In this document: piece by piece, positions 6,278 to 64,000 of the stretch
Layout: every line of letters starts with the position of its first letter
Numbering within the stretch: the first letter of the stretch is position 1
Assembly (NCBI GenBank): GCA_035946735.1
Contig: DASYYZ010000024.1
Span: forward strand, 13,475-77,474
Source: Terriglobia bacterium
GTDB taxonomy: Bacteria > Acidobacteriota > Terriglobia > UBA7540
Length of the DNA: 64,000 bases
Direction: 5' to 3'
Notes under the pieces: model-generated
What the model saw: only the letters and a program-made list of their open reading frames with translations
Told to the model about the DNA's origin: nothing
The model's database searches: none
Position numbers and translations under genes: made by a program

Positions 6278-6375
6278 CTGCGGCGGCTCGGGCCGGATGA
6301 GACAACAAAGAGGTATGTATCGGGCGTTCGCTGGTGCGACTTACCGTGCGAAATCCGCCGCAGCACCGGTGAATG

Positions 6376-6423
6376 AAGGCCGCGTTCGAGGCGCACAGAC
6401 CTCGGGCGCGGCCTTTTTTTTTT
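6376..6423 (+). terminator. Rho-independent terminator after hsp20
   Basis: AAGGCCGCG ... CGCGGCCTT stem with an inner CGAGG/CCTCG stem, followed by a run of ~10 T. Confidence 0.6.
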
Positions 6424-6463
6424 GACCCTTGTGTTTTTGAATTCTTGAGATCAGGTTTAAACT

Positions 6464-9115
6464 ATGGCTACTCGATTTGACAAGTTTACCGTAAAGGCCC
6501 AGGAGGCTCTGCAGAGCACCCAGGATATCGCTGGACGTTTTGGCAATCAGCAGCTCGAGCCGGTACATCTGTTGCTTGCTTTGGCTGAGCAGCCGGAGGG
6601 CATCGTTCCGGCGATCCTCAGCCGGCTAGGCGTCGCACTCGGAACTCTGGCAGCCGAGGCCGAGAGGGAGATCGAGAAGCTGCCCAAGGTGGGCGGCACT
6701 TCGGACCACCATCTCTCCGTCGCCCTGAAAGAAGCGCTCGACCAGGCGCCGCGCGAGGCCGAACCCTTCCACGACGAATTCGTGTCCACCGAGCACATGC
6801 TGCTGGCGCTTGCCCGCAAACCCAGGGAAGCGGCGGGGCGAATCCTTTCACAACTCGGGATCACGCACGATTCAATCTTGAAGGCGCTGGTGGCAGTGCG
6901 GGGTACGCAGCGCATCACCGATCCGAATCCGGAGGCCAAGTATCAGGCGCTCGAGCGCTACGCGCGCGACCTGACCGACCTGGCCCGTCGCGGCAAGCTG
7001 GACCCTGTCATCGGCCGGGACGATGAGGTCCGGCGCGTGATCCAAGTGCTTTCGCGCCGCACTAAGAACAATCCTGTGCTGATCGGCGAGCCGGGCGTTG
7101 GCAAGACGGCAATCGTGGAGGGCATCGCGCAGCGAATCGTCTCCGGCGACGTGCCCGAGTCGTTGCGCTCGAAGCGTCTGGTCGCGCTCGATCTGGGCGC
7201 GCTGATTGCCGGATCCAAGTATCGGGGCGAGTTTGAAGACCGGCTCAAGGCCGTCCTCAAGGAGATCGAGGAATCGAGCGGGCAGGTGATCCTGTTCATC
7301 GACGAGCTGCATACCCTGGTGGGCGCCGGAGCCGCTGAAGGCGCCATCGACGCCTCGAACATGCTGAAGCCGGCGCTGGCGCGCGGAGAGCTGCGCTGTA
7401 TTGGCGCCACCACGCTCAACGAGTTCAAGAAGCACATCGAGAAGGACGCGGCTTTGGAGCGGCGCTTTCAGCCCGTCTACGTTGGCGAGCCTACCGTGGA
7501 AGACACCATCGCTATTCTGCGCGGACTCAAAGAGCGCTACGAAGAACATCACGAGGTGCGGATTAAGGACTCGGCGATCGTGGCTGCCGCCGTGCTCTCG
7601 AACCGCTATATTACTGACCGTTTCCTGCCTGACAAGGCCATCGACTTGATCGACGAGGCGGCCTCCAGCCTGCGGATCGAGATCGACTCCAAGCCGGTCG
7701 AGATCGACCGGATCGAGAGGTGCGTCACCCAGCTTGAAATCGAGCGTCATGCGCTGGGCAAGGAGGATGATCCCGCCTCAAAGGAGCGTCTTAAGGCGAT
7801 CGAGCAGGAGCTCGGCGAGCTGCGCGAGAAGTCCGATGCGTTGAAGCTGCGCTGGAGGGCAGAAAAGGAAGTGATCACCCGCATCAGCACTTTGAAGAGC
7901 CAGATCGAGCAGGCCAAGGCCGAGGAGCAGCGCGTCACTGCCGAGGGCAACCTCAACAAGGCGTCCGAGATTTTGTACGGGACACTCCCGTCTCTCGAGA
8001 AGCAACTGGCAGCCGCTGAAGGTGACTTGGAAAAGAAGCAGCAGGCCGGGCGCATGCTTAAGTCCGAGGTCGATGAAGAGGACGTGGCGCGCGTGGTCTC
8101 GAAGTGGACCGGCATCCCGGGCTCGAAGCTGCTCGAAGGCGAGGTCGTCAAGCTTGTTGGGATGGAAAACCGCCTGCGCCTGCGGGTGGTGGGCCAGGAC
8201 GACGCTTTAAAGCTGGTCGCGAACGCCGTGCGTCGCAGCCGTGCCGGTCTCTCCGACCCGAACCGTCCCATCGGCTCGTTTCTGTTTCTGGGGCCGACGG
8301 GCGTCGGCAAGACCGAGCTTGCTCGCGCTCTCGCTGAATTTCTGTTCGACGACGAACACGCCATGCTGCGCATCGATATGTCGGAATACATGGAGAAACA
8401 CTCGGTGGCCCGGCTCATCGGCGCGCCTCCGGGCTACGTCGGCTACGAGGAAGGCGGCCAGTTGACCGAGCCCGTCCGGCGCCGGCCTTATGCCGTGCTG
8501 CTGTTCGATGAAATCGAGAAGGGGCACACCGACGTCTTCAACATCTTTCTGCAGGTTCTCGATGAGGGCCGGCTCACCGATGGCCAGGGCCGCACCGTAA
8601 GCTTCCAGAACACGGTGATCATCATGACTTCTAACATCGCGAGCCATGAAATTCATGCTGCGATGGGGCCCGAGGGCGGGCACGACAAGCGCTCCGGTGA
8701 GTCACACGAGATTTCCGAGGGGCTGCGGCGGAACATCCAGGCCACTCTGCTGCAACATTTCCGGCCGGAATTTATCAACCGGATCGACGAGATCGTGATC
8801 TTCAATCCGCTTGGCAAGCGGGAAATCGAGAAGATCGTCGATCTGCAGCTCGACCACGTGCGCCGCCTGCTGTCCGAACGCAAGGTGGAATTGGATCTCA
8901 CGGACAAGGCTCGCGAGCTGCTGTTCCGCGAAGGCTACGACCCGCAATTCGGCGCCCGTCCCCTGAAGCGGGCCATCCAGCGGCTCATCCAGGACCCGCT
9001 CGCCATGAAGCTGCTCGAAGGCGACGTCCGTCCCGGCGACAAAGTGCTGCTGGATGGCGATTTGCGCAAAGGCGAGATGAAGTTCGAGCGGGAAACAGCG
9101 AAAGCCGCGCCTTGA
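6464..9115 (+). CDS. clpB: ClpB disaggregase (AAA+ chaperone)
   Basis: Clp N-domain, two Walker A motifs ([16 protein letters not shown]), a long coiled-coil middle domain, 883 aa. Confidence 0.97.
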
Positions 9116-9236
9116 GACTCTGCTCCTCACTGAGTCTGCTCCTCCTCTGAGGATGTTCGGGGTGAACGCGCCTCGTCGGCTTTTCCCGAATGTCCTCGGC
9201 CACTCGATCGAAAAATCGGCAATCCGAAGAGGTCGA

Positions 9237-12050
9237 TTATTCATAGCGCAGCGCCACCATGGGATCGACTCGAGACGCGCGGCGAGCCGGTACGTAGCCG
9301 GCAAATGCCGCCGCAGCCACCAGCAGCAACGCCGCGCCGGCGATGGTCAACGGATCGTTCGGCTTCAGCCCGAACAGCAGGCTTGAGATCAGGCGCGTCG
9401 CTTCGAGTGCCCCGAACACACCCAGGGTGATTCCAATCGCCACCAGCACCAGAGTCTCGCGCAGGACCATGCCAAGAATCTCAGCGCGGTTCGCGCCCAG
9501 CGCCATACGGATGCCGATCTCGCGGGTACGTTGCGAGGTGGCGAAGGCCATGATGCCGTAAACGCCCAGGCAGCCGAGCAGCGCAGCCAGCAAGCCGAAG
9601 AAACTGGTGAGGCGCGCGAAGAGGCGCTCCTGAAACAAGGTTTGATTGATCTGCTCAACCTGGCTCTTGACGTCGAAGAGCGCCAGGTTCGGGTCCGTGC
9701 CCTGAGAGACGCGACGCACGGCCGGCGCCAGCGCCATGGGATCGCCTGCGGTACGCACCTCGAAGTGCATGCCACCCAGCAACTTCACTTCCTGCAGGTA
9801 TGGAGTGTAAACGGTGGGAGGGACCTCTTGCCGAAGATCGCTGTATTTGGCGTCGCCCGCCACACCCACAATCTCGATATCGGCTTTGGTCTTTTGATCG
9901 CCAAAACCGAATCGCCTACCGATGGGGCTTCCGCTGCCCAGGTATTTGCGAACGAACTTTTGGTTCACCACTGCCACCTTGGGTGCTGCGGCCGCGTCGC
10001 CTTCGCCGATGCCGCGCCCGAGAATGATCGGCATGCCGAGGGTTTCAAAAAAAACCGGACCTACCCGGTTCCACCAGGCCTCGAGGCCGTCTCTCTTCTC
10101 ACCCGCCTTTGGCGTGTAGCCGAGAATACCGACCGAGTTGATGGCCTCGCCGTTGCCGATCAGCGTCAAGGCCGACAGAGTCACTGAGCGCACACCGGGC
10201 AACGCCTGGAGGCGCCGGGTAAACTCCTGGTAAAAATCCGCCAGACGCTGTTCCTTGTAGCCATCCTGAGTGGGGTCAACGCCGAAGAGGAGGAGGTTTC
10301 GTTCATTGAACCCCGCATCGACATTTTGGAGATTGGCCAGCGTGCGGACAAACAAGCCCGCGCCGACCAGCAGCAGAAGAGAGAGTCCCACTTGCGTGAC
10401 CACCAGCGTCTTGCCGAGCCCCAAACGCAAGCCGCGACGGCGCTCCTGCGCACCCGGCATTTTTCCTGCGCTTTCTTTAAGCGCGGGAGTGAGATCGACG
10501 CGGGTGCTTCGCAGTGCCGGCGAAAGCCCAAACAGAATGCCTGTAAGCAGCGAAACCGCCGCGGTGAAACCGAGCACCCCTGGATCAGGTGTCACGCTCA
10601 AGCTCACGGGATTGCGGCCGCTCGACATAAAGGCAACCAGAAGGTGCGTTCCCCAGAAGGCCAGGAGCAGCCCCAAAATACCGCCCATGGCGGCCAGCAG
10701 CACGCTCTCCGTCAGCAATTGCCGGACGAGCCGCGATCTTTTGCCGCCAATGGCCAGCCGTACGGCAATCTCCTTCTGGCGCGAAGTGCCGCGCGCCAGG
10801 AGAAGATTGGCAACGTTCGCGCACGCGATCAGCAGCACCAGTCCCACCACCGTCATCAGGACATACAGTGGCTTGGAGAATTCCCCGCGCAGCTCATCGA
10901 GGCCCTTGCTCCCGGGTTCCACTTCCAGGTGGGGAATGGTTTCCGGCTTAATGGTGGGTTTTACGTCCGGCGACATACTTTGCTGAAGCAATACGTCGAG
11001 TTGAGCGCGCGCCTGTTGTTCGCTCACGCCCGGCTTTAGGCGGCCCATGATGAGCAGCCACCACTGGTTGCGCGCCGCGAAGAGCGTTCCCGCAGGTTTT
11101 GCGGCGCCGCCCGGCGCGGGCTCGGGAGGCTCAGGTGACCACCGCGGCTCCACCTGTGGCTGGCTGTGAAGCGGCAGCCAGACTTCAACGGCGCGTCCGG
11201 GCTGCACGCCATAGAACTCGGGCGGGCTCACACCGACAATCGTTACGGGGACGCTGTTCACCGTGATCGTCCGCCCCAAAACGCCAGGGTCGCGCCCGAA
11301 ACGCCGCTCCCAGTAGCCATAACTGATAACCGCCGCGGGACCTGCGCCAATGCGGTCGTCATCGGGAGTGAGGGCACGGCCCAGGATGGGCTCAACGCCC
11401 AGCGTCGAGAAAAAAGTTCCCGAGACGAGTTCGCCCTCGGCGCGGCCCGGCACTCCTTTATAACCCACGTTCAAGTCGCTGCTGTTACCGGCCAGTGCCA
11501 ACACGTCCGAAAATACGTGATTGTGCACGCGGATCTGCTCATAGCCGAGATAAGCAAAGGACGTGCTGGTGTTGCGTCCGCCTTTATCTAAACCCCAATT
11601 GCCCGTGAGGCCGCTGATGATGCCGTTTGGCCACCCATGCGAGGCCCACTTCAGCAGCAGAAGCTGCTGCGGACTCTGAACGGGCAGCATCTTGAGCAGC
11701 ACCGCGTCAATCAAGCTGAAGATGGCCGTATTAGCGCCGATTCCGAGCGCGAGCGAGAGCACCGCAACGGCCGTGAATCCGGGACTGCGCCGCATGGCGC
11801 GTAGACCATAGCGCACGTCTTGACTCAGACGTTCCAGCAGGATCGATCCCCACATGGCTCGTGTCTCCTCCCGTTTCAGGCCCGGGTTGCCGAAGGCGCG
11901 CAGCGCGGCGTAACGAGCCTCGCTGGGCTGCATGCCGGCGGCGATGTTCTCGTTCGTCTTCATGTCGAGGTGGAAGCGCAGCTCGTCGTCGAGATCGTGC
12001 TCCTGGGTGGACCGTCCGAACAGTGAGCGTAATCGTTTCGTCAGTCGCAT
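9237..12050 (-). CDS. Duplicated MacB-like/FtsX ABC permease (ADOP family)
   Basis: Permease-prefix N-terminus (LDDELRFHLDMKTNENIAAGM.P.EARY.ALRAFGN). Two MacB-periplasmic plus FtsX halves. C-terminus ...YVPARRASRVDPMVALRYE. Confidence 0.9.
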   Translation of the reverse strand: MRLTKRLRSLFGRSTQEHDLDDELRFHLDMKTNENIAAGMQPSEARYAALRAFGNPGLKREETRAMWGSILLERLSQDVRYGLRAMRRSPGFTAVAVLSLALGIGANTAIFSLIDAVLLKMLPVQSPQQLLLLKWASHGWPNGIISGLTGNWGLDKGGRNTSTSFAYLGYEQIRVHNHVFSDVLALAGNSSDLNVGYKGVPGRAEGELVSGTFFSTLGVEPILGRALTPDDDRIGAGPAAVISYGYWERRFGRDPGVLGRTITVNSVPVTIVGVSPPEFYGVQPGRAVEVWLPLHSQPQVEPRWSPEPPEPAPGGAAKPAGTLFAARNQWWLLIMGRLKPGVSEQQARAQLDVLLQQSMSPDVKPTIKPETIPHLEVEPGSKGLDELRGEFSKPLYVLMTVVGLVLLIACANVANLLLARGTSRQKEIAVRLAIGGKRSRLVRQLLTESVLLAAMGGILGLLLAFWGTHLLVAFMSSGRNPVSLSVTPDPGVLGFTAAVSLLTGILFGLSPALRSTRVDLTPALKESAGKMPGAQERRRGLRLGLGKTLVVTQVGLSLLLLVGAGLFVRTLANLQNVDAGFNERNLLLFGVDPTQDGYKEQRLADFYQEFTRRLQALPGVRSVTLSALTLIGNGEAINSVGILGYTPKAGEKRDGLEAWWNRVGPVFFETLGMPIILGRGIGEGDAAAAPKVAVVNQKFVRKYLGSGSPIGRRFGFGDQKTKADIEIVGVAGDAKYSDLRQEVPPTVYTPYLQEVKLLGGMHFEVRTAGDPMALAPAVRRVSQGTDPNLALFDVKSQVEQINQTLFQERLFARLTSFFGLLAALLGCLGVYGIMAFATSQRTREIGIRMALGANRAEILGMVLRETLVLVAIGITLGVFGALEATRLISSLLFGLKPNDPLTIAGAALLLVAAAAFAGYVPARRASRVDPMVALRYE

Positions 12051-13864: not shown

Positions 13865-16576
13865 ATGCGGATACTGCTTTGCATTTCGAACCTTTGGCGC
13901 AACTTGTTTCGCCGCGTGCAACTGGAGCAGCAACTCGACGACGAAGTTCGTTCCTACGTCGATCTGTTGGCGGAAGAGAAGATCAGGACCGGAATGAGCG
14001 CGCAGACGGCTCATCGGGAGGCGGTGATGGAACTCGGCGGCATGGAACAGGTCAAGGAAGAGGTGCGCGGAATCCGAGCCGGCTCGCAGATCGAAATCCT
14101 GATGCAGGATTTTCGCTACGGTTTGCGGATGCTGGCGAAGAACCCGGGCTTCACGGCTGTGGCCGTGCTGACGCTGGCTCTCGGCATCGGAGTGAACAGC
14201 ACTATTTTCAGCGTGATCAGCACTATGGTGCTGCGGAAGCCGCCCGTCCATGATCCCGACCGGTTGATGATGCTCTTCAGCAGGAACGCCGGCGCCGGGG
14301 GGACGGGCGATGACGCCAACCGCTCGCCGGTGTCGCCTCCTGACTTCGTCGACTGGCGCGCGCAGGCGGCCTCGTTTACAGGAATTGCAGCCGCCTCGTC
14401 TTTTGAGAACGACAGCCACGTTACGCTGAGCGGCGGCAGCGAACCGGAGCGCGTGCCGAGCGCGCAGGTGTCAGCGAATTACTTTGAGGTGCTGGGCGTC
14501 TCTCCGATACTGGGACGCGGCTTCCTACCGGGCGAAGACCAGGTTGGCCGCGGCCAGGTGGTGCTGCTGCGCGCCGACCTGTGGAAGCGCCGTTTCGGCG
14601 CCGATCCGGGCGTTCTGGGCCGCACGGTGAAGGTGAACGGAGAGGTCTATACCGCAATCGGCGTCATGCCGGACTCGTTCCGTCAGCTCTGGATGTTTCC
14701 CGAGCAGCTCTGGACTCCGCTGGCCTTCGCGCCCGCGCAACTGGCGCCCGCGGCGCGCGCCCAGCGGAGCCTCAGCGTGTTCGGACGGCTGAAGCCCGGC
14801 GTGAGCGAGACACAGGCGCGATCCGAACTCGAAACCATCTCGCAACGGATCGCCGCGAGCAACCCTGAAAGCAACAAAGACTGGGGTGCGAACGTCTTGA
14901 CCCTTCAGGAGTACGCGATCCAGGAAAGCAACGCCGCCACGGCGCTGGCGTTTCTGATGGCGGCGGTGGGATTCGTCCTGCTGATCGCTTGCGCCAATCT
15001 CGCCAATCTGCTGCTGGCCCGCAACGCCAACCGCCAGCGCGAATTCGCGGTTCGAGCGGCACTCGGCGCCGGCCGGCTCCGTCTGGCGCGCCAGCTCCTT
15101 TCCGAGTGCCTTCTCCTGGCTCTGCTCGGCGGCGGCATGGGTCTGCTCTTTGCTGCCTGGGGCCTGCACCTGCTTCGCGCCGCATTCAACTGGAATGAGT
15201 GGTCGGTGATGATTGCCGAACAACTTTCCATCGATGGCAACGTGCTGCTGTTCACGTTCGGGGTCTCGGCGGCCACGGCAATTATCTTTGGCCTTGCTCC
15301 CGCCTTTCAGATTTCCCGACGCGACCCGAACGCCGGTCTCAAGGAAAGCTCGAGATCGACGACCACAGGGCGCGAGCATCATCGTTTGCAAGACCTGCTG
15401 GTGATCGCCCAGCTTGCATTGTCTCTGATCCTGCTGGTGGGTGCGGGAATCTTCGCCGAGAGCTTTATCGAAGAGATGCGGGCAAGACCTGGGATGAATC
15501 CGCACAATCTTCTCACGGCGTCGATCTCGCTGGCAGGCACGGCCTATAAAGACCCCTCGCGCCAGAGCGCCTTCTTTCAAAGCGTTTTGCGCCAGCTTGC
15601 GGGCCTCCCGGAGGTTCAGTCGGCGGCGGTCACGAGCGACCTGCCCTACACCTTTCCGGGTTATGCGCACATCGCCCTCGAGGGCCGCCCGGTGCCGAAG
15701 ACGGAGAAACAGGCGCAGTCCGCATACTTCGCCGTAAGCCCCGGTTATCTCGCCGCCACGGGAATTCCGCTGCATGAGGGGCGCGAATTCACTCTTGCTG
15801 ACAACGCCGGCTCGGTTCCGGTGGCGATCGTCAACGAGGCTTTCGCGCAAAAGTTCTTCCCGAACGAGAACCCGTTGGGACGCCACGTCAGAATCAGTCA
15901 CCCGGAGAGCGCAGAGAGTGAGGCGGCTGCCGCGAAGTGGAGCGAGATCATCGGTGTGGCCGGCAACGTGGACGAGCTTGTGGGGCAGCAAGCCCCGCGG
16001 CCTCAAATTTTCGAACCGTTCCTGCAGCGGCCTGACGGCTCAATGAGCGTGATCATACGGCTCAGGACCGAACCGGGCGCCTTTGCAGCCTCGCTGCGGC
16101 GCGCCGTCTTGAAGGTGGACAAAGACCAGCCGGTGACCAACATAAGAACCATGGACCGCGTCTTGCTGGACTCCGCGCAAGGCGACGATGCCATGGCCGG
16201 CCTGATGGGCGCGTTCGCTATCATCGCCCTCATGATGGCGGCGGTCGGCATCTACGGTCTCATCGGCTATCTGGTCGGCCGGCGGACTCACGAGCTGGGC
16301 GTGCGCATGGCCCTTGGCGCGCGCCGCCGGGAGGTCCTGACGCTGGTGCTGCGCCAGTCGATGGGAATGGTGTTGGCAGGTGTAGGCATTGGTTTCCTGG
16401 TCTCGCTCACGATGCCGCGCCTGGTGACTGCAAGCTTTCAGGGATTCCACGCGCACAGCGGATGGATCCTGGCCGGCACGCCCCTCGCCGTGATTCTGGT
16501 CGCCACTGCTTCAAGCTATCTCCCGGCGCGGAAGGCCTCAAATCTCGATCCTATGGCAGCCCTGAGACACGAGTGA
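13865..16576 (+). CDS. Duplicated MacB-like/FtsX ABC permease (ADOP family)
   Basis: Same architecture as 9237..12050. It lies 32 nt downstream of the PadR gene. Confidence 0.9.
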   Translation: MRILLCISNLWRNLFRRVQLEQQLDDEVRSYVDLLAEEKIRTGMSAQTAHREAVMELGGMEQVKEEVRGIRAGSQIEILMQDFRYGLRMLAKNPGFTAVAVLTLALGIGVNSTIFSVISTMVLRKPPVHDPDRLMMLFSRNAGAGGTGDDANRSPVSPPDFVDWRAQAASFTGIAAASSFENDSHVTLSGGSEPERVPSAQVSANYFEVLGVSPILGRGFLPGEDQVGRGQVVLLRADLWKRRFGADPGVLGRTVKVNGEVYTAIGVMPDSFRQLWMFPEQLWTPLAFAPAQLAPAARAQRSLSVFGRLKPGVSETQARSELETISQRIAASNPESNKDWGANVLTLQEYAIQESNAATALAFLMAAVGFVLLIACANLANLLLARNANRQREFAVRAALGAGRLRLARQLLSECLLLALLGGGMGLLFAAWGLHLLRAAFNWNEWSVMIAEQLSIDGNVLLFTFGVSAATAIIFGLAPAFQISRRDPNAGLKESSRSTTTGREHHRLQDLLVIAQLALSLILLVGAGIFAESFIEEMRARPGMNPHNLLTASISLAGTAYKDPSRQSAFFQSVLRQLAGLPEVQSAAVTSDLPYTFPGYAHIALEGRPVPKTEKQAQSAYFAVSPGYLAATGIPLHEGREFTLADNAGSVPVAIVNEAFAQKFFPNENPLGRHVRISHPESAESEAAAAKWSEIIGVAGNVDELVGQQAPRPQIFEPFLQRPDGSMSVIIRLRTEPGAFAASLRRAVLKVDKDQPVTNIRTMDRVLLDSAQGDDAMAGLMGAFAIIALMMAAVGIYGLIGYLVGRRTHELGVRMALGARRREVLTLVLRQSMGMVLAGVGIGFLVSLTMPRLVTASFQGFHAHSGWILAGTPLAVILVATASSYLPARKASNLDPMAALRHE

Positions 16577-16706
16577 AACTTTCGATCGATCGGCTGCGTA
16601 TATTTGTGGGCTGGCTTGTGTGTTCTCAACACGTACGCGCAGGCGCTATAGGCGCAGAATCAGCCGGTGTACGCAAGTGGAAGGAAATTTCAAAAGGAGA
16701 TTGCTG

Positions 16707-17117
16707 ATGAAGAATGCCAAGACTTTAATTACCGGAGCTTGCCTGCTCGTGCTGGCCGCGGCCTGTCTGGTTTTGGGTGAAGACAAGAAATCCGCCAAGG
16801 ACTCCCTGGCCGGTACCTGGGACTGCGTTGCCCATCTGAGCGGCGAGGATGACATCCCGTTTACGATGACTCTCGATCAGAGGGGCGAGGTCATCACTGG
16901 TTCCGTCGCTACTCACGAAGGAGATCTGGAGGTCAAGTCCGGAACCTATAAGACCGGCACGCTGGAACTCCATCTGGAGACGCCGGACGCCAAGTACGCG
17001 GTCACCGGGAAGCTGGATGGAGACCAATTCAAGGGACAATGGTCGAAGGATCCGGATGGAATCGGGGGCGATTGGGAAGGGAAGAGATCGGGCCCGGCCA
17101 AGTCCTCCGGCCAATGA
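16707..17117 (+). CDS. Small secreted protein of unknown function
   Basis: AAGGAGA lies 7 nt before the ATG at 16707. Signal peptide MKNAKTLITGACLLVLAAACLVLG. No family recognised. Confidence 0.65.
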   Translation: MKNAKTLITGACLLVLAAACLVLGEDKKSAKDSLAGTWDCVAHLSGEDDIPFTMTLDQRGEVITGSVATHEGDLEVKSGTYKTGTLELHLETPDAKYAVTGKLDGDQFKGQWSKDPDGIGGDWEGKRSGPAKSSGQ

Positions 17118-17160
17118 ACGGAGCGACGTTGATCCTCTTCGCAAGGAAGAATGTTCTTCG

Positions 17161-17322
17161 CCGCGCCTGGTGACTGCAAGCTTTCAGGGACTCCACGCGC
17201 ACAGCGCATGGATCCTGGCCGGCACGCCACTGGCCGTGATTCTGGTCGCCATTGCTTCAAGCTATCTCCCCGCGCGGAAGGCCTCAAATCTCGATCCTAT
17301 GGTAGCCCTGAGATACGAGTGA
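17161..17322 (+). pseudogene. Orphan 3' fragment (last 53 codons) of an ADOP/FtsX permease gene
   Basis: PRLVTASFQGLHAHSAWILAGTPLAVILVAIASSYLPARKASNLDPMVALRYE* matches the C-terminus of 13865..16576 almost residue for residue. There is no permease body upstream of it. Confidence 0.75.
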
Positions 17323-17491
17323 AACTTAAATCGACCGGCGCGTATATTTCGCGTATATTTGTGGGTCGGCTGTGCGTTTTCAAGGATGCATGCGGGGGCT
17401 ACGAGTGCAGAATCAACCGGTGTACGTAATAAGAAGATAAATTCCAAAGGAGATTGCTGATGAAGGGTGCAAGGCTTTGATTACTGGGGCC
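17161..17491 (+). repeat. Second, decayed copy of the segment 16415..16738
   Basis: Offset is 746-753 nt. It covers the permease 3' end, the intergenic region (with an extra GCGTATATTT unit), the SD and the first codons of the small secreted-protein gene. The copy reads ATGAAGGGTGCAAGGCTTTGA, i.e. MKGARL*. Confidence 0.7.
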
Positions 17492-17550
17492 CCGCTGAAC
17501 TCGACAAGGTGCCGATCGGCACCTATCTTCGACTGGAAGGCAACTAATCG

Positions 17551-17808
17551 ATGGATTTGAATGGAATTTTGCAAGAGCTGAAGACCAGGCGCGAATCAGT
17601 AAGACGAGCCATCGAGATCCTCGAAAAACAGCCCCGCGATTCGGCCAAGTCCGGCCGGCGATCTCGAAGTCTCAGCAACATTGAGAAAATGCGAACCATC
17701 ATGCTCCAGACACGGTTCAAGTGGGCCGTGCCGCGCATCGCCAAGAGCCTGCAGCGTCCGGTCCCGGTCGTCCGCGCCTATCTGCGGACGCGGAAATCAT
17801 CCGGATAG
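17551..17808 (+). CDS. Hypothetical small protein (weak call)
   Basis: Only an 85-aa ORF in an otherwise gene-poor stretch. No motif recognised and only a weak SD. Confidence 0.2.
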   Translation: MDLNGILQELKTRRESVRRAIEILEKQPRDSAKSGRRSRSLSNIEKMRTIMLQTRFKWAVPRIAKSLQRPVPVVRAYLRTRKSSG

Positions 17809-18331
17809 CTAAAACTCCTCTCTTGCAAGCTTGCAAGATTCACGGCGCAATCACAGCGCGGTCTAATTGTAAGGTTCGCCCGAGTCGCTCAGCGTCGGTT
17901 CGCTGCCGATTTGATCGATATACTGTCACGCCTGTATCAAGCCTAGAATCAGAAGCTTAAGTGTTGGGGCTAAGCATGGTCCCGTCGAGCGCCTTGGACG
18001 CTGCGTACGACCAGCGCGATATGCATTTGGCGGCGAAAACGGGGGCGACTCCGGTATTCGCCGGCGGTTAGACGGCTTGCTGAGCACCGCCGCAACGGTC
18101 CGCGCCGCGTGATAAGCAGCCTCCTGGGCCGCGCCCTGTCAACAAGGCGCGGCGTATTGACTTCGTGAGCCTCGGACTGTTCGCACATCCTTCATCCAGG
18201 GATTGCAAATCAGTCCGGGCGGTGTGAAAATAGGGCTTCGTGGGCGTTGATTCTCGTCGGTTCCCGATCGAAGTTCTGACGAGGCTGATCAAGCGAAGGC
18301 AGACAAAGCCAGACCAACGAGGAAACGAGTC

Positions 18332-18994
18332 ATGGCCCGCAAACCAACCGAGCGCGTCCTTCAGGACGGCTTCCTTCCAAAGCTTCAGAATGGAAAATCG
18401 ATTCAGGAATTCCGGAACCGGCAACCCATTTTCTCCCAGGGGGACGCGGCTGATGCGGTGTTTTACCTTCAAAAGGGCAAAGTCAAAATAACGGTCATAT
18501 CGAAGCAGGGCAAAGAAGCTGTTATCGGCATGGTTGAGCCGGGCCAGTTCTTCGGCGAAAGCAGCTTGGTTGCGGGGCACCCGCTTCGTATGGCGAGCGC
18601 CACCACGATGGGACACTGCACAGTATCTCGCTTTGACAGAGAGACGATCGTGTACCTGCTTCACGAGGACGCCGAATTTGCGGACCGCTTCGTGTCATAT
18701 ACGCTGGCTCGCACCGTTCGAGTGGAAGAAGACCTGGTGGATCAGCTTTTCAATTCGACCGAGAAGCGGCTCGCCCGCGTTCTCCTGCTCCTGGCCAACT
18801 TCGGCCAAGATGGCAAACCTCAGCCGGTGATTCCCAGGATCAGCCAGGAGACTTTGTCGCAGATTGTTGGCGCCAGCCGCCCTCGCGTGAGTTCCTTCAT
18901 GAACAAATTCAGGCAGCTGGGTTTCATCGACTACAACAACGGCGGCGGCTTGCAGGTTAACGGTTCTCTCCTCAGAATGGCTCTGCGGGACTAA
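18332..18994 (+). CDS. Crp/Fnr family transcriptional regulator
   Basis: cNMP-binding fold (IFSQGDAADAVFYLQKGKVKI...GQFFGESSL) plus a C-terminal HTH (SQETLSQIVGASRPRVSSFMNKFRQLGFI). Confidence 0.85.
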   Translation: MARKPTERVLQDGFLPKLQNGKSIQEFRNRQPIFSQGDAADAVFYLQKGKVKITVISKQGKEAVIGMVEPGQFFGESSLVAGHPLRMASATTMGHCTVSRFDRETIVYLLHEDAEFADRFVSYTLARTVRVEEDLVDQLFNSTEKRLARVLLLLANFGQDGKPQPVIPRISQETLSQIVGASRPRVSSFMNKFRQLGFIDYNNGGGLQVNGSLLRMALRD

Positions 18995-19128
18995 CACCAG
19001 CCTCAAGATTTGATTGTAGACCTTCATCTAATCGGCCACGCGGACGCAGACCGAAGGCGTGGTATGAACGGACGTCTGGCTACAGGATGCCGAGCCAAAA
19101 GGGCCGGATGCCAAGCCCAAGTGCTTGT

Positions 19129-19311
19129 TCAGGTCAGGCGCTTCTTCTTGGGCGCCTCGCCGCCGACCGCAACGAAGGTTGCAGAATCGGCCCGAAGCTT
19201 CTTGATGCCGATTCTGCGAAAGAATACCAGCGTCTGGTCCCGGTCGTGATCCATGATCGTGCCCCATCCGTATTTGGAATGGCGCACGTACTGCCCGGTC
19301 TTCAGCGTCAT
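19129..19311 (-). CDS. Small Tudor-like (DUF3553 / UvrD-PcrA C-terminal-like) protein
   Basis: 60 aa with G.YVRHSKYGWGTI......Q.LVFF...G.KKL, resembling the G..V.H..fG.G.V...F..-G.K.L pattern. Confidence 0.5.
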   Translation of the reverse strand: MTLKTGQYVRHSKYGWGTIMDHDRDQTLVFFRRIGIKKLRADSATFVAVGGEAPKKKRLT

Positions 19312-19332
19312 GGGGTAACTCCTCCTTCTCTG

Positions 19333-19647
19333 TTAATCGCGCCCGTAACCGCCGCTTTCCCGGCCGTTACCATTGCGTTTTGCGGAGAAACCGCCCGTAC
19401 GCGCTGGGCGCGCTTCGTTTACCGTCAGCGCCCGGCCTTCGAGCGATTGGCCGTTCAGCCCGGTCACGGCCCGCTGCAGATCTTCATCTTCTGACAGCTC
19501 CACAAAACCGAAACCTCTCGCCGCGCCCGTCAGCTTGTCTTTGATCACCGATGCCGAAGCCACCTTGAAGCCGGCATTGGTGACGAAATCGCTCAGACTG
19601 CTGTCGGTGGCGCTGTGAGGCAGATTTCCTACGTAAAGTTTAGTCAT
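19333..19647 (-). CDS. RRM-type RNA-binding protein
   Basis: RNP motifs MTKLYVGNL (RNP2) and RGFGFVEL (RNP1), with a Gly/Arg tail. GGAGGA lies upstream of the ATG at 19647. The longer track ORF start is rejected. Confidence 0.9.
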   Translation of the reverse strand: MTKLYVGNLPHSATDSSLSDFVTNAGFKVASASVIKDKLTGAARGFGFVELSEDEDLQRAVTGLNGQSLEGRALTVNEARPARTGGFSAKRNGNGRESGGYGRD

Positions 19648-19792
19648 TGAATCCTCCAAAGTTGGGTCGGCCTCTTGCGAGCCGCCCGGGTTAGCTACGG
19701 TTACAGTTTGAGCCGCCGGCGCCCTCAAGTGAGCAAGTGCAACGCGGCAGCGTGCACGAAGACGATTCCTGAAATATGGACGTGCTACCCGG

Positions 19793-20599
19793 CTAGGGAC
19801 GAAAGGCAGCCTGGTTCTCCAGCTTAGTCTTCGCCCTCGCATCGCGCTCGTCGTCATCCTGCTGCTTCAGGCGCGCAATCTCTTTTTGAGGAGCCTCGCG
19901 CTCCTCAATGCGGGTGGCGTCGGCGGCCGCAGTTCGGGCCTTCGAATTCAGCTCCTTCGAAAGAAGCAGCATTGCGAAACTGGCGTCGCCGGAGGAACGC
20001 ACCAGGCTGACGGAGTACTGTGGGGTCTCCCAGCGCGCGATGAGTCTGTCGCTGGCGGCCTCGGCGAGAGACAACGCGACCAGCGTCGTCTTCCCGGCCG
20101 GTCGCGCTGCCGTGCCGTAGGTGGCCGAGATCACCTTGATGAGGTCCGGTTCGCTCAAGCCCTCAGTCCTCTCCGGGGCGTAATTGACCACCATGCGAAA
20201 GAGCTCGCTGTTGTAAAAGCTGAAGACGATGCTCTCCACCGGGTCCGCGGCAGACGAAGAATCGAGCGCGGGCGGGAGGCGCCAGTTCATCTCCTGAATC
20301 AGTGCCGGACGCTCATGGACGACGGTGATCTCCGACGATCCCGTATCGGTCTGTTTCGCGACCGCGGCCAGAGGCGTCCCAAAGCTAAACTCCCGGTACC
20401 GGGAAAGGTCTGGTGTTTGAGCTGACGGAGCGATCAAATCCGCCGGGAATGAAAGGCTGGCGAGCGAAGGCCGGGGTCGGAGTGCCAATTCTTGAATCAC
20501 TGCAGGCCCGGACGGCTTTGCATCTTGAGCACAAGCCCAAGGCGCCAGCGATAGGGCGGCACCAACAACTGAAACCAAGACACTGCGGGCATTAATCAT
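19793..20599 (-). CDS. Secreted hypothetical protein
   Basis: GGAGGAG SD. Signal peptide MINARSVLVSVVGAALSLAPWACAQD. Confidence 0.65.
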   Translation of the reverse strand: MINARSVLVSVVGAALSLAPWACAQDAKPSGPAVIQELALRPRPSLASLSFPADLIAPSAQTPDLSRYREFSFGTPLAAVAKQTDTGSSEITVVHERPALIQEMNWRLPPALDSSSAADPVESIVFSFYNSELFRMVVNYAPERTEGLSEPDLIKVISATYGTAARPAGKTTLVALSLAEAASDRLIARWETPQYSVSLVRSSGDASFAMLLLSKELNSKARTAAADATRIEEREAPQKEIARLKQQDDDERDARAKTKLENQAAFRP

Positions 20600-20653
20600 T
20601 GAAATCTCCTCCTATGGGAGTTGACGCTCCGGCGGTTCAGGCGCGTTCGACCC

Positions 20654-20992
20654 CTACCGGTCCAGTGAAGCATCCGGAACACCGAGGCTTTCGCCTCTTC
20701 CTCTTCCCGGCTTTTTGGTCGAACGATGGGCTTCCAGGTACGCCCGGACGTCCTGGTCAGTGATATTGAGGTGGGCTTCCGCTCGAACGGCTTGGGTTTC
20801 TTCGAGCAGTCCCTTCTTCAGACGCATGAAGCAGATGTCCGGCCCATCCTGGAATCTCAACCCGGACGGTGCAAACGCCTCCGCCTGAATTTTCACGGTG
20901 AATTCGCGGGGTTCGCGGGGCGCGTCGATTAAGTGAAAACCATAGAGCCGAGAACCCGCCGTGCCATCGAAGCCTACGTATTGAATATACAT
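20654..20992 (-). CDS. Hypothetical protein
   Basis: An internal ATG at 20992 is preceded by GAGAGGAAAGG. No family recognised. Confidence 0.5.
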   Translation of the reverse strand: MYIQYVGFDGTAGSRLYGFHLIDAPREPREFTVKIQAEAFAPSGLRFQDGPDICFMRLKKGLLEETQAVRAEAHLNITDQDVRAYLEAHRSTKKPGRGRGESLGVPDASLDR

Positions 20993-21165
20993 GGCAGAAT
21001 CCTTTCCTCTCAGGCTTGGGACGACGCCGGCAACGCCGCCACCGCAAGCAACTTCATAATTTTCGGAAATCATTGCTACCACCATCTCCCTGTTGGGTCT
21101 TTTGACCCCTTCGCGGGCTGCCCGAAAGGCCTGAAAGCCCGGGAACAGTCAATGCTCTGTCAGAC

Positions 21166-21486
21166 TTAGGCGGCTGCCTGGCGCACGATCTTGTGGAAGG
21201 TCGAGTTGGAGACCTGGTGGTTTTGAACCTGCGGGCTGCCCTCGATGACGTTTGCCAAGGCCCGGAGCGTTTCCCCGTACCCACGCCGGCTGTAACTTTC
21301 GGCGTCCTCGCGGCGATCCCACAAAGTGATCGAAACCGCTTCCGTTCCGTTCGGGGCGATGAACGCAATTTCGTCTTGGAAGCCTTCTTGCCTTCGAAGC
21401 ATGGGGATGATCTTCTCATCGATTGTTTGCGTGAACTCCTCAACACACTTGGACTTGAGATGCAGGTAGACAGTTCGAGCGAACAT
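21166..21486 (-). CDS. Small ABM/Dabb-like (ferredoxin-fold monooxygenase-like) protein, paralog of 41485..41805
   Basis: 106 aa. ...GF.DEIAF...NGTEAVSITLWD..EDA..Y.... matches an ABM-type beta-alpha-beta pattern. AAGGAGG SD. Confidence 0.7.
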   Translation of the reverse strand: MFARTVYLHLKSKCVEEFTQTIDEKIIPMLRRQEGFQDEIAFIAPNGTEAVSITLWDRREDAESYSRRGYGETLRALANVIEGSPQVQNHQVSNSTFHKIVRQAAA

Positions 21487-60350: not shown

Positions 60351-62396
60351 CTACTTTAAGGTGAACTTCACGTCCACTTCCGTTTCGACCTGAACAGGCA
60401 CGCCGTTTCGCACGGTGGGCCGATAACGCCACGTTGAAACCGCATCCATTGCCGCCTTCACTAACAGTGGCGGCCCGCTGATGAGCTTCAGGTCCTGGAT
60501 GGTTCCGTCTTCGTTCAGGGTTGCGGCCAGCCGAACGAGGCCCTCGACGCGGGCTCCCGCGGCGATTTGAGGATAGGCAGGCGCCGGCCCGTATAGGATG
60601 TTGCGTGTTGCAATCTGCCCGCTGATACGGATGTGCTTCGGAGTTGCCGGCTTCGGATGAGGAGGAGGAGCGCCGGATGTTTCGCCGCTAACGGCTCCAG
60701 AGGTTAAAGGCTGGCTTGACTGATCAGCCTGAGTGCTCGCGCCCGGCCCGGCTTGTTGCCGAGCCGCCGGGGCGCCTGCGATGGCGCCGCCAGCCAGGGG
60801 GTGAGGGGTTGCCGATTTTGAAGAAGGCGACGAAGCGCCGCTACCAACACTGGCGGTGCCGCTTCCTGGAGTCGGGCGCTCACCTGCCTGCGATGCTTCA
60901 CTGCTCGACGGGCTGACGCCTTGGCCTGAGGCAGGGCTGCCTTGTGTCCGCATTCCAGGGTTTTTCCCATCGCTTGCGCCCGGAGACCTCAGACCCAGGT
61001 ACAGAGCGAGAACCGCGCCCGCAAGCACGCCAGCGATCGCGGCGGGCACCTTCCACCGAACCGGAGTACCAGAAGAGACTCTCTTTGCGCGAAGCGATGG
61101 AGAACTCCCGCCGGGTGCTGGTTCCGTGGTTCCACTGGGTATCTCAACGCCTTGGGTCAAAGGGCCCGTCGACCGCGACGTCTCCGAGCTTCGTCCCAGG
61201 ACGGTGGCGCCCACGCCTTCTCTTGCCCGCGCCTCCCGTTCAGGCCGCAGCGTTGAGGCAACTCGCGCTTCGGCGATCTGTTGCTTCTGCTCGAGCCATT
61301 CCTTCTCAACCGGGGCGTGAGGGACACGTTCGGCCCCTCTTGCCTCCGGCTCAGCCGCCCCCAGCGGGCCAGGCTGCCTCTCCCAGAGTTCGATCTCGTA
61401 AATCAAGGCTCCGGCGTTGGCGGGCCGCCTGTCCGGAGGCTTTTCAAGACACTGCATCACGAGCTTCGCGATCGCCTCGGGTACGTCCGCGCGGTGAGTA
61501 CGGATGTCGCGGGGAACGCTCTGGATGTGCGCGATCAGCATGCCCATTTCAGAGTCGCCTTTGAGCGGCAATTCGCCCGCCAGCATCTGGTACATCATCA
61601 CCCCGAGCGAGTACAAATCCGACCGGCCGTCGAGGTCGTCACCCTTTTTGCCCACCGCTTGCTCGGGCGACATGTAGGCCGGAGTTCCAATCAACATGCC
61701 GGTTCCGGTCAGCGTTCCGTGGGTGACGCCGCTGTCTTCAAGGTGACCTTCCTTGATCTTGGCGATGCCGAAATCCAGCACTTTAGCCTGCTCTTGGGGC
61801 ACAAGGTCCACGTTCCGGCCGTGGGGCTTTCCGAGGCCCCATACCCCCGCAGGGCCGTGAGACGACCCCGGCGCTACAAGGGCGACATTGGCCGGCTTGA
61901 TGTCGCGGTGCACGATGCCGAGTTCGTGCGCAGCAGCCAGTGCCGAAGCCACCTGCTTAACGGTGGAGCAGACCCGCGCTACCGGCATGGGACCTTCGGA
62001 CTGCATAACCTCTTTGAGGCTGCGCCCACCGATGAACTCCATCACGATGAAGGGAAGGCCGTCTTCGGCCTGATCAATATCATCCACGCGTACGGCGTTG
62101 GGGTGCTGCAGGCGGCGCGTTAAGACGGCTTCTTGCGTGAAACGCTGTACGAAATTAGCATCCGCGGCAAGATCGGGGTTGATGGCTTTTAAGGCGCGCA
62201 ACTCGTGGAAGTGTATGTGCTCGGCTTTGTAGACCGTGGCCATCCCGCCGGCTCCGACTCGCGCTAAGATCCGGTAGCGTCCGCGCACCACCGCGCCTTC
62301 TTGCCACAATCCCAGTTCCTTCAGCAAAGTCAGGTCGCGCGGGCAATGCGTGTAGTCCCTGGGATAGTTGGCGTGGCAGGTGGGACAGTTCTTCAT
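60351..62396 (-). CDS. Ser/Thr protein kinase with N-terminal zinc-ribbon-like CxxC...C motif and C-terminal TonB_C domain
   Basis: MKNCPTCHANYPRDYTHCPRD. Kinase motifs GAGGMATVYKA, HRDIKPAN, DFGIAK, GTPAYMSPEQ. One TM, a long Pro/Ser/Gly linker, and a TonB_C-like end (YP..A....VEG.V.L.A.....G.I.D.K.ISG.P.L..AA..AV..W.Y.P). The track start 62684 is rejected in favour of the ATG at 62396. Confidence 0.85.
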   Translation of the reverse strand: MKNCPTCHANYPRDYTHCPRDLTLLKELGLWQEGAVVRGRYRILARVGAGGMATVYKAEHIHFHELRALKAINPDLAADANFVQRFTQEAVLTRRLQHPNAVRVDDIDQAEDGLPFIVMEFIGGRSLKEVMQSEGPMPVARVCSTVKQVASALAAAHELGIVHRDIKPANVALVAPGSSHGPAGVWGLGKPHGRNVDLVPQEQAKVLDFGIAKIKEGHLEDSGVTHGTLTGTGMLIGTPAYMSPEQAVGKKGDDLDGRSDLYSLGVMMYQMLAGELPLKGDSEMGMLIAHIQSVPRDIRTHRADVPEAIAKLVMQCLEKPPDRRPANAGALIYEIELWERQPGPLGAAEPEARGAERVPHAPVEKEWLEQKQQIAEARVASTLRPEREARAREGVGATVLGRSSETSRSTGPLTQGVEIPSGTTEPAPGGSSPSLRAKRVSSGTPVRWKVPAAIAGVLAGAVLALYLGLRSPGASDGKNPGMRTQGSPASGQGVSPSSSEASQAGERPTPGSGTASVGSGASSPSSKSATPHPLAGGAIAGAPAARQQAGPGASTQADQSSQPLTSGAVSGETSGAPPPHPKPATPKHIRISGQIATRNILYGPAPAYPQIAAGARVEGLVRLAATLNEDGTIQDLKLISGPPLLVKAAMDAVSTWRYRPTVRNGVPVQVETEVDVKFTLK

Positions 62397-62641
62397 GACG
62401 CGGGTCCGGACTTCGGGGTGAGGGATACTATAGCACAAGGTTAACTTTCGAGCCGTGTTGGGCCGGGCTGGCGCGCTTACCAGGGGGCGGGGCTGGCGCA
62501 GATCGAAGATCTGCGATTGAGATGTCGCCGCGCAATCGTACAGACCATAGAATCGCATGGCTGCGCTATGCCCCATCCCCGGCCCCTGCAACTCAATACC
62601 ACTTGTCAACCCAGCCTGGAGGCTGATAATAACATTAGCTA

Positions 62642-64000
62642 ATGTCCGAATCGAAGCCGGCGGGCCCGTTCGAGCAAACGGCAAACGCGTCTCTGATAGC
62701 GGTCCGCGGTCAACTCATTTCTCAACATTACTTGACCCACCAGCTTGTGAACCGCGACGACTGGAAGACCCTCGCGGGCGATCCTCGTGTTGCTCAAATC
62801 GAGCAGCTCTTCGAACGAGCCAAGCCCAGCCTGGCGAGAAACCAGCCCGGCGGCAAGGGGAGCAACGAAAGCGCCGTACGCGATTTCTTGCTGAACCCGG
62901 CTCTTGGGATCCTGGGCCTGCGCTGGTCGCCCGGTGTGAGCTACTTGGGCACCGAGCCAGACTACGCGCTGTATCAGGACCGGAGCACCTTCGAAAAGGC
63001 TCAATCTTTAATCAACGATGGCAAGGAATTCGACGCCCTGAAGTTGAGCTGCGGCGTCGTGGAGGCTGAACGTTGGGGGAAAGAGTTCGGCGAAAGGCCT
63101 GCCAGATCGGACCTAAGTGATCCAATTTTTCAGATTGAGTTCTATCTGGGGAACGCACGGCGCAGTGGGGGTCCCCGCTGGGGCCTATTGACCAACGGCC
63201 ACACATGGCGACTCTACTGCGGCGACTCCGATCCTTCCCGCCACCACTATCTTGAGGTCGAACTGCCCACGGGGCCCTCGCTCTTCGTGCAGCAGGAGCG
63301 TGCCGCGTTCCAGTGGCTCGTTTACCTCTTTAGCGCGGAGGCTCTTGAGCCCGGTGGTCGACTGGATTCGATTTACGAGCAAGCCACTCGCCGCGCGGCG
63401 GCCATTACCGCCGAGTTGAGACGTCAGGCGTTCGGCGCTGTCGAGCTTATCGCCTCGGCGATCATGCGCGCCAGCCCGTCTGCCTCGCCTCAGCTCGCTT
63501 ACGAGGCCGCACTCATTCAACTCTTCCGGTTGCTCTTCATCCTCAAAGCCGAGGCGGACGGGTTACTGAAGAGCCGGATCGTCTCTCGGGAAATGGCAGA
63601 GCGGATCATTAATCGGAACAGCGACTCGGTCGGCGGAGGGGACTGGCAGGGAACGGGCCTCTGGCACGAACTGCACGACCTCTTCGCCGCCATCGCGCAA
63701 GACTACAACGGCCACCTCTTCGAAAGCAGGCCTCCTACATCAAGCCCGGCGGCGGACGATTCAACCGATTACTTTGCCCCGGCTCGCGCTCTGCTTGAAA
63801 GCGTGACCCTGCCCAACCAAGCCACCGCTAACGCGCTCGATCGTCTCCTGCGGGTCTATCAGCAGGACGCCCAGCAGCGGGTTCGGCCGATCCGGGTGGA
63901 TTATTCCACATTGCGGGTCCGTGAGCTCGGAACCATATACGAGGGTCTGCTGGAGTGGCGTCTCGAACCGGTCTCGCCCGCCCAGATCAAGGCCGGGTCA
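62642..64000 (+). CDS. 5' part (453 codons, open at window end) of a type IIG restriction-modification / BREX PglX-like enzyme
   Basis: I translated from the ATG at 62642 to base 64000 without a stop; it is absent from the ORF track because no stop falls in the window. HsdR_N-like PD-(D/E)xK region: EPDYALY...CGVVEAERWGKEF...GLLTNGHTWRLY. Later VDYSTLRVRELGTIYEGLLEW, a motif typical of the helical domain preceding the methyltransferase in such enzymes. Confidence 0.75.
   Translation, partial: MSESKPAGPFEQTANASLIAVRGQLISQHYLTHQLVNRDDWKTLAGDPRVAQIEQLFERAKPSLARNQPGGKGSNESAVRDFLLNPALGILGLRWSPGVSYLGTEPDYALYQDRSTFEKAQSLINDGKEFDALKLSCGVVEAERWGKEFGERPARSDLSDPIFQIEFYLGNARRSGGPRWGLLTNGHTWRLYCGDSDPSRHHYLEVELPTGPSLFVQQERAAFQWLVYLFSAEALEPGGRLDSIYEQATRRAAAITAELRRQAFGAVELIASAIMRASPSASPQLAYEAALIQLFRLLFILKAEADGLLKSRIVSREMAERIINRNSDSVGGGDWQGTGLWHELHDLFAAIAQDYNGHLFESRPPTSSPAADDSTDYFAPARALLESVTLPNQATANALDRLLRVYQQDAQQRVRPIRVDYSTLRVRELGTIYEGLLEWRLEPVSPAQIKAGS

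Follow-up and report, generated by a model that had tools for sequence, protein, structure and literature searches.

Can a restriction-type nuclease whose catalytic lysine has been replaced by glutamate still cut DNA? This question is raised by a gene at the end of a 64,000-nucleotide stretch of Terriglobia bacterium DNA (Acidobacteriota; GenBank assembly GCA_035946735.1, contig DASYYZ010000024.1, positions 13,475 to 77,474), hereafter the window. An open reading frame (ORF) on the plus strand starts with an ATG at 62642 and is still open after 453 codons, when the window ends at 64000. An initial annotation of the window had described this stop-free frame as the N-terminus of a type IIG restriction-modification (R-M) or PglX-like nuclease-methyltransferase fusion with a variant nuclease motif. 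The ORF list and its translation agree with the described frame, and the interpretation is supported by the complete gene product, which carries Eco57I, MmeI_Mtase and N6_Mtase domains and scores 428.7 bits against a PglX model. We consider it rather probable that the product is a solitary, self-contained and active type IIL-like single-chain R-M enzyme whose ExE active site resembles that of BamHI. The gene is an ordinary kind of phage-defence gene of a soil acidobacterium, and it is unusual in its exchange of Glu for Lys and in being a mosaic of two protein families.

The ORF is not a chance frame because its 453-residue product has 1305 homologous cluster representatives (E <= 1e-3 in an exhaustive HMMER search of 1.84 billion proteins), mostly 1200-1500 residues long, and because orthologues with 69-73% identity were found by a scan of species-representative genomes in four metagenome-assembled genomes of Terriglobia/Acidobacteriota, the intact genes encoding 1459-1488 residues. 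The peptides quoted in the initial annotation (PD, VVEAERWGKEF, WGLLTNGHTWRLY and VDYSTLRVRELGTIYEGLLEW) are each found where it had placed them, WGLLTNGHTWRLY being encoded at 63179-63217 and VDYSTLRVRELGTIYEGLLEW at 63896-63958. The full protein, P0177, was found by a search of protein collections with the N-terminal region of one orthologue. It consists of 1486 residues, and its residues 1-453 are identical to the window ORF. The first 1497 bases of a Logan contig, L005, correspond to window positions 62504-64000 with no mismatches over 1497 bases, and this contig encodes exactly P0177. On L005, the 4461-bp R-M gene occupies positions 139-4599, and its end is equivalent to window position 67102, outside the window. 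The identity with P0177 and the overlap with L005 show that the window holds the first 453 of the 1486 codons of a single-chain nuclease-methyltransferase gene (62642..64000, plus strand). Thus, the frame does not stop soon after 64000, an early end being one of the two outcomes that the initial annotation had named as speaking against its reading.

The other such outcome was the lack of a methyltransferase downstream. P0177 has its methyltransferase domains at residues ~470-960, with both the S-adenosylmethionine motif DPAMGSGHFL and the catalytic NPPF in place. Pfam matches include Eco57I (residues 595-883, 93 bits), MmeI_Mtase (519-617), N6_Mtase and DUF7008 (1329-1446), and those to N6_Mtase and MmeI_Mtase are above the cut-offs. 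A target-recognition domain, for which a check had been proposed, corresponds to the variable region after the methyltransferase (residues 961-1260), where TaqI_C matches weakly in the orthologue P0002. The chain therefore begins with a PD-(D/E)xK nuclease, which a helical connector links to a gamma-class N6-adenine methyltransferase, and it ends with the target-recognition region and a C-terminal DUF7008 domain. DUF7008 is not mentioned in any paper found. The connector is all-helical in the structural model according to DSSP and extends from residue 211 to about residue 468 (63272..64000, plus strand, the window ending at residue 453). Its near-invariant VDYxTLxVRxLGxIYEGLLE segment is encoded at 63896-63958, and G430, Y433, E434, L436 and L437 are invariant among 111 sequences. 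PADLOC profiles of type IIG and DrmMI proteins cover the connector part of the window fragment (2e-13 for DrmMI). A separate observation concerns the methyltransferase domain, which contains a variable insertion just before NPPF (P0177 residues ~751-800, outside the window) that includes CDRRTATDEIRRSQSAATAPER; the gap fraction of this block of residues 751-800 is 0.34, and about a third of the clade members lack residues there.

The PglX-like part of this protein raises the question of whether it belongs to a multi-gene system. The NCBIfam equivalog model NF033451 (BREX_2_MTaseX) of bacteriophage exclusion (BREX) type 2 gives 428.7 bits for P0177 and 462.3 bits for P0002, both above the cut-off of 400. 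PglX is also the best match of P0177 in the PADLOC defence library (8.6e-142), followed by DrmMI (2e-78) and type IIG (4e-71, with several REBASE-derived type IIG profiles), and a Ser/Thr kinase gene adjoins the R-M gene in the window. These features would suit a BREX type 2 (Pgl) system in which the protein serves as PglX, with pglW, pglY, pglZ, brxD and brxHI located elsewhere. However, the best-scoring stretch of the 1185 model positions is 358-770 for P0177 and 354-1009 for P0002, so that the match begins only at positions 354-358, and by homology the first 460 residues come from a different family. Moreover, BREX genes are in none of the contexts examined. Seven contexts of full-length members of the Terriglobia clade to which P0177 belongs (the window joined to L005, and L001, L002, L003, L004, L009 and L010), reaching up to 10 kb on each side of the gene, contain none of pglW/Y/Z, brxC, brxD, brxHI, drmA/B/C/D or a PLD-SNF2 gene. 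Nor were BREX, DISARM (defence island system associated with restriction-modification) or PLD-SNF2 partners found at the L006 locus of a connector-deleted relative, P0185. The expectation of the initial annotation that BREX or DISARM partner genes might lie beyond the window has thus met with none in these contexts. A role as a BREX type 2 subunit is very improbable and is largely refuted already. Because its context and its N-terminus are not those of BREX-2 PglX, the enzyme should not be filed there, even though it passes the sequence threshold.

The active site of the nuclease was examined by counting the motif columns of an alignment of 141 homologues. Glu76 in helix alpha-1 (E76 and R80 being encoded at 62867..62881, plus strand) occupies a position that is acidic in 139 of the 141 homologues (Glu in 138 and Asp in 1). 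Position 80 is Glu in 109 of the 141 and Arg in the Terriglobia clade. The PD motif, P106-D107 (62957..62962, plus strand), has Pro in 130 homologues at its first position and Asp in all 141 at its second. The variant (D/E)xK motif, E141-A-E143-R144-W-G-K147 (63062..63082, plus strand, with E-A-E itself at 63062-63070), has either Glu (77) or Asp (64) at position 141, while position 142 is Ala in 118 of 141 and position 145 is Trp in 126 of 141. At position 143, where Lys is expected, 133 homologues have Lys and eight have Glu. Q164-x3-Y168, in the helix after strand 3 (63131..63145, plus strand), is retained in the window, Gln being present in 137 of 141 homologues and Tyr in 141 of 141; we take it to resemble the QxxxY motif of the RecB family. 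In place of the canonical D...(D/E)xK triad with Lys, the window thus reads D107...E141-A-E143.

The absence of Lys from the ExK position, which the initial annotation had noticed in VEAER, is a true lineage-specific replacement of Lys by Glu, as seen in the alignment and in the clade members. Five of the eight Glu-143 cases belong to the clade of the window, two are independent lineages (P0046, reading VVEVET, and P0091, reading GEAEAW) that both retain the other catalytic residues, and the last is a fragment that was misaligned. E-[A/S]-E-R-W-[G/D]-K is found in every one of the 28 full-length clade members, together with E76, D107, E141, Q164 and Y168. The clade also departs from the family consensus at positions 78, 80 (Glu to Arg, one helical turn after E76), 160 and 187. 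Because R80 occurs together with K143 in 14 other homologues, E80R and K143E are not strictly coupled.

The initial annotation had proposed that the nuclease is either inactive or uses the adjacent Arg. This list is incomplete, because it omits the best precedent, BamHI, which is active with an E..D..ExE site. The catalytic residues of BamHI are E77, D94, E111 and E113, and the E113K substitution abolishes cleavage (PMC8845596). An E...D...ExE site is therefore a known working variant. Because the arrangement E76...D107...E141-x-E143 is the same as that of BamHI, E143 is likely to take part in activating the metal or water, and the nuclease domain has probably kept its catalytic ability.

Structure prediction supports a PD-(D/E)xK nuclease fold for the N-terminal domain. 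AlphaFold2 gave a mean predicted local distance difference test score (pLDDT) of 88.3 and a predicted template modelling score (pTM) of 0.85 for the two-domain model of 453 residues, built with 111 homologues, and a pLDDT of 89.5 for the nuclease domain alone. The model has a helix at residues 76-90, strands at 94-97, 108-111 and 138-142, a helix at 161-174 and more strands, followed by the all-helical domain. The AlphaFold2 model and Foldseek place an alpha-beta-beta-beta-alpha-beta core at residues ~60-210 (62819..63271, plus strand). With the domain-only model, the top Foldseek matches are DrdV structures (7lo5/7lvv; prob 1.00, E 9e-4), BpuSI (3s1s) comes third (prob 0.96), and HsdR fragments rank lower. 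With the two-domain model, BpuSI is at the top (prob 0.94) but with poor template modelling scores (TM-scores). Searches of the PDB by sequence only gave methyltransferase matches and none for the N-terminus. Of the HsdR_N-type PD-(D/E)xK domain that the initial annotation had recognized, the PD-(D/E)xK fold is supported by the model and by Foldseek, but not the assignment to HsdR_N in particular, the domain being structurally nearest to the MmeI/DrdV/BpuSI kind.

Conservation within the clade differs strongly from domain to domain. Mean pairwise identity is 0.78 in the nuclease (residues 60-200), 0.80 in the connector (201-460) and 0.77 in the N-terminal part of the methyltransferase (461-640), and it falls to 0.66 in the methyltransferase insertion (641-860), 0.59 in the C-terminal part of the methyltransferase (861-960) and 0.47 in the recognition region (961-1260) before rising to 0.71 in the DUF7008 end (1261-1486). 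The mean nonsynonymous divergence (dN) is 0.15 for the nuclease, 0.125 for the connector, 0.22 for the whole methyltransferase domain (461-960), 0.54 for the recognition region and 0.13 for the DUF7008 end. Thus, conservation of the nuclease is similar to that of the N-terminal half of the methyltransferase, and variability is highest in the recognition region. Such a pattern, in which the nuclease is strongly constrained and the recognition region diversifies, is expected of a working restriction enzyme family, although by itself it is no proof of catalysis.

Several points weigh against an active nuclease of the type IIL kind. Replacement of the catalytic lysine is the commonest way of killing a PD-(D/E)xK nuclease. 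BamHI is no close relative, and the analogy with it is one of chemistry only. The Foldseek TM-scores are modest (0.35-0.46), and Pfam MmeI_N (PF20464) matches the window fragment only weakly (17.9 bits, E 0.004, below the 27-bit gathering threshold); among the matches listed, P0198 is the sole homologue with a precomputed PF20464 hit. The ratio of nonsynonymous to synonymous divergence (dN/dS) of the nuclease, about 0.05 where the synonymous divergence (dS) is computable among five genes with DNA sequences, is rough and indicative only, because dS is saturated in many pairs. The negative result for partner genes covers only the DNA flanking the gene, up to 10 kb on each side. Finally, strong conservation would also fit a non-catalytic role, for example in oligomerisation or DNA sensing.

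These points lead to the alternative that the K143E replacement killed cleavage and that the N-terminal domain now serves structure, oligomerisation or DNA sensing. In that case, the protein would be a solitary adenine methyltransferase used for epigenetic marking or left over from defence. The catalytic Lys is indeed gone throughout the clade, and the methyltransferase motifs are intact. The conservation of the nuclease domain could stem from protein-protein contacts, by which the type IIL enzymes' nuclease domains are constrained according to the authors of the DrdV study (10.1101/2021.01.06.425610). Retained but inactive restriction endonuclease domains recur in BREX-related proteins; however, the published examples have motifs that are degenerate throughout (PMC12839542), whereas E76, D107, E141, Q164 and Y168 are invariant in 28 clade members that share 63-82% identity. 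The hypervariable recognition region (mean identity 0.47) and the patchy contexts, some of them defence islands, fit a gene engaged in an arms race and not a regulatory methylase. BamHI, in addition, shows that an ExE site can be catalytic (PMC8845596). On balance, we regard a dead nuclease as unlikely, although it is by far the most serious of the competing explanations.

How the enzyme would act if its nuclease is indeed active can be drawn by analogy with DrdV and MmeI, following the type IIL cleavage model of the DrdV cryo-electron microscopy study (10.1101/2021.01.06.425610). The recognition region and the methyltransferase would bind a short asymmetric site. In the host chromosome, one adenine of this site would be methylated, on one strand. 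On incoming DNA, in which several unmodified sites are bound, the molecules would assemble through their connector and nuclease domains, so that a site-dependent switch from modification to cleavage may take place. The paired nuclease domains would then cut at a fixed offset, with E143 replacing Lys in the activation of water or metal, as in BamHI.

Where did this combination of domains come from? Residues 1-460 of P0177 match 75 of 75 IIG-family proteins of the TaqI_C type and 0 of 72 DUF7008 proteins. Conversely, every one of the 72 DUF7008 proteins is matched by residues 961-1486, as are 5 of 75 IIG-family proteins, while the methyltransferase core matches both the TaqI_C-type IIG-like and the DUF7008 families. 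Because the N-terminal 460 residues match only the IIG family and the C-terminus matches the DUF7008 family, the clade is a fusion of two lineages. Judged by these homologies, the lineage is a type IIG nuclease-plus-connector joined to a BREX-2-PglX-like body of methyltransferase, recognition region and DUF7008. Among 91 long representatives that share the N-terminus of the window, the DUF7008 end is present only in the clade, and, the independent ExE cases P0046 and P0091 aside, both the fusion and the Lys-to-Glu change are confined to it. DUF7008 proteins outside the clade (~1500 residues) have an unrelated N-terminus of ~380 residues that does not match the nuclease profile. Such nuclease-less DUF7008 methyltransferases, a family with more than 4460 homologues, are the nearest kin that residues 480-1486 have beyond the clade, with 35-47% identity.

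In both of the loci sampled, the nuclease-less DUF7008 methyltransferase lies directly downstream of a PLDc_2 + SNF2 helicase gene encoding 1020-1057 residues (L007 3-7109 for P0304 and L008 5999-14635 for P0316, each with the PLDc_2 + SNF2 gene followed by the methyltransferase). These loci look like a two-gene methylation-based defence module, in which the PLD-SNF2 helicase is likely to be the nuclease in trans. The arrangement suggests a further alternative for the clade, in which the enzyme would mark self DNA and recruit an unlinked PLD-SNF2 helicase-nuclease or another effector, the N-terminal domain being auxiliary. The immediate upstream position of the PLDc_2 + SNF2 gene at the P0304 and P0316 loci (2 of 2) speaks for such an arrangement, but a PLD-SNF2 gene is present in 0 of the 7 clade contexts, which reach up to 10 kb on each side, and is also missing from the P0185 locus, and the partners of a defence gene are normally adjacent to it. 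Furthermore, the clade has swapped the usual N-terminus of the DUF7008 family for a nuclease module, as would be expected on the loss of a trans partner. An effector acting in trans is therefore quite improbable. The P0304 and P0316 loci could not be matched to a named system: they have no DUF499, and their methyltransferase is of a different type from that of the BREX-related (BR) and MANTIS systems.

For the clade, we tentatively suggest a natural re-engineering, which we hold to be possible but not the likelier course of events, in which a body formerly partnered by PLD-SNF2 took up a type IIG nuclease-connector in cis, with the ExE switch and E80R arising in the same step. If so, the clade would be a worked example of multi-gene methylation-based defences collapsing into one-gene R-M enzymes, and its metal dependence or nicking behaviour might be altered. 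Should the ExE site prove catalytic, no earlier case of a BamHI-type active site in a single-chain type IIG/IIL enzyme would be known to us.

Comparison with known systems places the solitary ExE enzyme close to types IIL and IIG. With the type IIL enzymes DrdV and MmeI (7LO5/7LVV and 5HR4), it shares the order of nuclease, connector, gamma-class N6-adenine methyltransferase and recognition region as well as the single gene without partners; the nuclease domain of DrdV is its best structural match (prob 1.00), and there is a match to MmeI_Mtase. P0177 is larger (1486 residues, against 1029 in DrdV and 919 in MmeI). Unlike these enzymes, it has Glu for the catalytic Lys, and in place of an MmeI-type recognition region and C-terminus it has those of the BREX-2-PglX/DUF7008 type. 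The spacing from Asp to ExE is 33 residues in P0177, whereas that from Asp to ExK in MmeI is reportedly about 9 residues. The type IIG enzyme BpuSI (3S1S) has the same nuclease-connector-methyltransferase-recognition layout. However, the aligned part shows just 12-18% sequence identity, the low global TM-score (0.22) means that the domain packing differs, and BpuSI is without DUF7008; it has the canonical Lys. In every structural feature that can be tested, except the canonical Lys, the clade enzyme agrees with types IIL/IIG.

The resemblance to multi-gene systems is confined to parts of the protein. Likeness to BREX-2 PglX, above the curated cut-off of NF033451, is seen in the methyltransferase's second half, in the recognition region and in the DUF7008 C-terminus, but the N-terminal 460 residues are the nuclease and connector of another family, and pglW/Y/Z, brxD and brxHI are not nearby. 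The type 1 BrxX/PglX proteins that have been described structurally have an all-helical N-terminus and no nuclease (PMC12839542). DrmMI of class 1 DISARM is similar in part, its PADLOC profiles matching the connector together with the methyltransferase's first half; this match is weaker than that of PglX, however, and drmA (helicase), drmB (DUF1998), drmC (PLD) and drmD (SNF2) are in no locus examined. The nuclease-less DUF7008 methyltransferases P0304 and P0316 differ in their unrelated N-terminus and their adjacent helicase-nuclease gene. BamHI shares the E(alpha-1)...D...E-x-E constellation, with Glu at the Lys position, but it is a small homodimer with a separate methylase, and the likeness lies in active-site chemistry, not in homology. 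MANTIS (Gao_RL) and the DUF499-centred BR systems were also considered. They are defined by DUF499 or an AAA+ ATPase with a DUF1156-type methyltransferase and a helicase-nuclease (PMC12839542, 10.64898/2026.09.23.753747), and they were rejected because the clade enzyme has no ATPase or helicase neighbour and its methyltransferase is of the Eco57I/DUF7008 type, not the DUF1156 type.

Current understanding stands, and the clade is a well-defined variant of modest weight. For annotation, it matters that the BREX-2 PglX equivalog model scores above its cut-off, so that pipelines will label a solitary nuclease-methyltransferase as a BREX subunit. For enzymology, the clade is a natural test of Glu replacing the catalytic Lys in a type IIG/IIL nuclease, as in BamHI, and it bears on nuclease-dead calls that are made from motifs alone. 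For evolution, the clean mosaic shows that one-gene R-M enzymes and multi-gene defences based on methylation exchange effector modules. For enzyme discovery, roughly 30 clade members with highly diverged recognition regions form a panel of probable new specificities.

The seven contexts of the full-length clade members all differ from one another. Downstream of the R-M gene, L005 carries genes for an HlyD-type adaptor and a MacB/FtsX permease. The neighbours are a TonB-dependent receptor, an amidase, GGT and ModABC in L001, a ferritin-like protein and a histidine kinase in L002, an epimerase in L003, an aminotransferase, a glycosyltransferase and GNAT in L004, and a glycosidase in L009. In L010, genes for a TIR_2 protein, a 1278-residue AAA_16 (STAND-like) protein and a Dam-like methylase lie on one side of the clade member (398-9774) and an SpvB/Rhs/YD-shell polymorphic toxin on the other (15209-21289), so this member sits in an island of conflict systems.

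P0185 (L006 8001-11651, present on 21 contigs) had been considered as a nuclease-less variant, but BLAST shows that its ExE nuclease is retained (68% identity to residues 21-223) and that it is the connector that is gone. The entire helical connector (residues 224-468) is missing, and the nuclease is joined directly to the methyltransferase. The gene adjoins a phage-type integrase and a pair of genes of the PADLOC candidate system PDC-M23A/B (with a Hachiman-like helicase), and its locus looks like a defence island.

Upstream of the R-M gene in the window, 20 kb of DNA encode IspH, a sulfatase, an MFS transporter, an oxidoreductase, FtsY, a hybrid histidine kinase, an S41 peptidase and the kinase-TonB_C protein, a housekeeping set. 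The last of these, a Ser/Thr protein kinase of 681 residues with a C-terminal TonB_C domain (60351-62396, minus strand; Pkinase 6.5e-40, TonB_C 1.5e-17), is missing from the orthologous loci and is unrelated to the R-M gene. It was considered as a candidate PglW and rejected, being 681 residues long, fused to TonB_C, divergently oriented and missing from the orthologous loci; PglW has 1400-1600 residues, with a NERD nuclease and tandem kinases (PMC12839542). A 777-residue frame with a TTG start on the minus strand, which overlaps the R-M start by 43 nucleotides, was likewise set aside as an over-extension of the kinase gene, whose Pfam-positive part is only 60351-62396.

With this kinase boundary, the sequence leaves a divergent intergenic region at 62397..62641 between the kinase gene on the minus strand and the R-M gene, and both promoters presumably lie within it. 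The placement of the translation start of the R-M gene at 62642 is tentative. Residues ~1-15 are weakly conserved among the orthologues, and the sole GGAGG upstream, at 62618-62622, is 19 nucleotides before the ATG, too far for a classical Shine-Dalgarno site.

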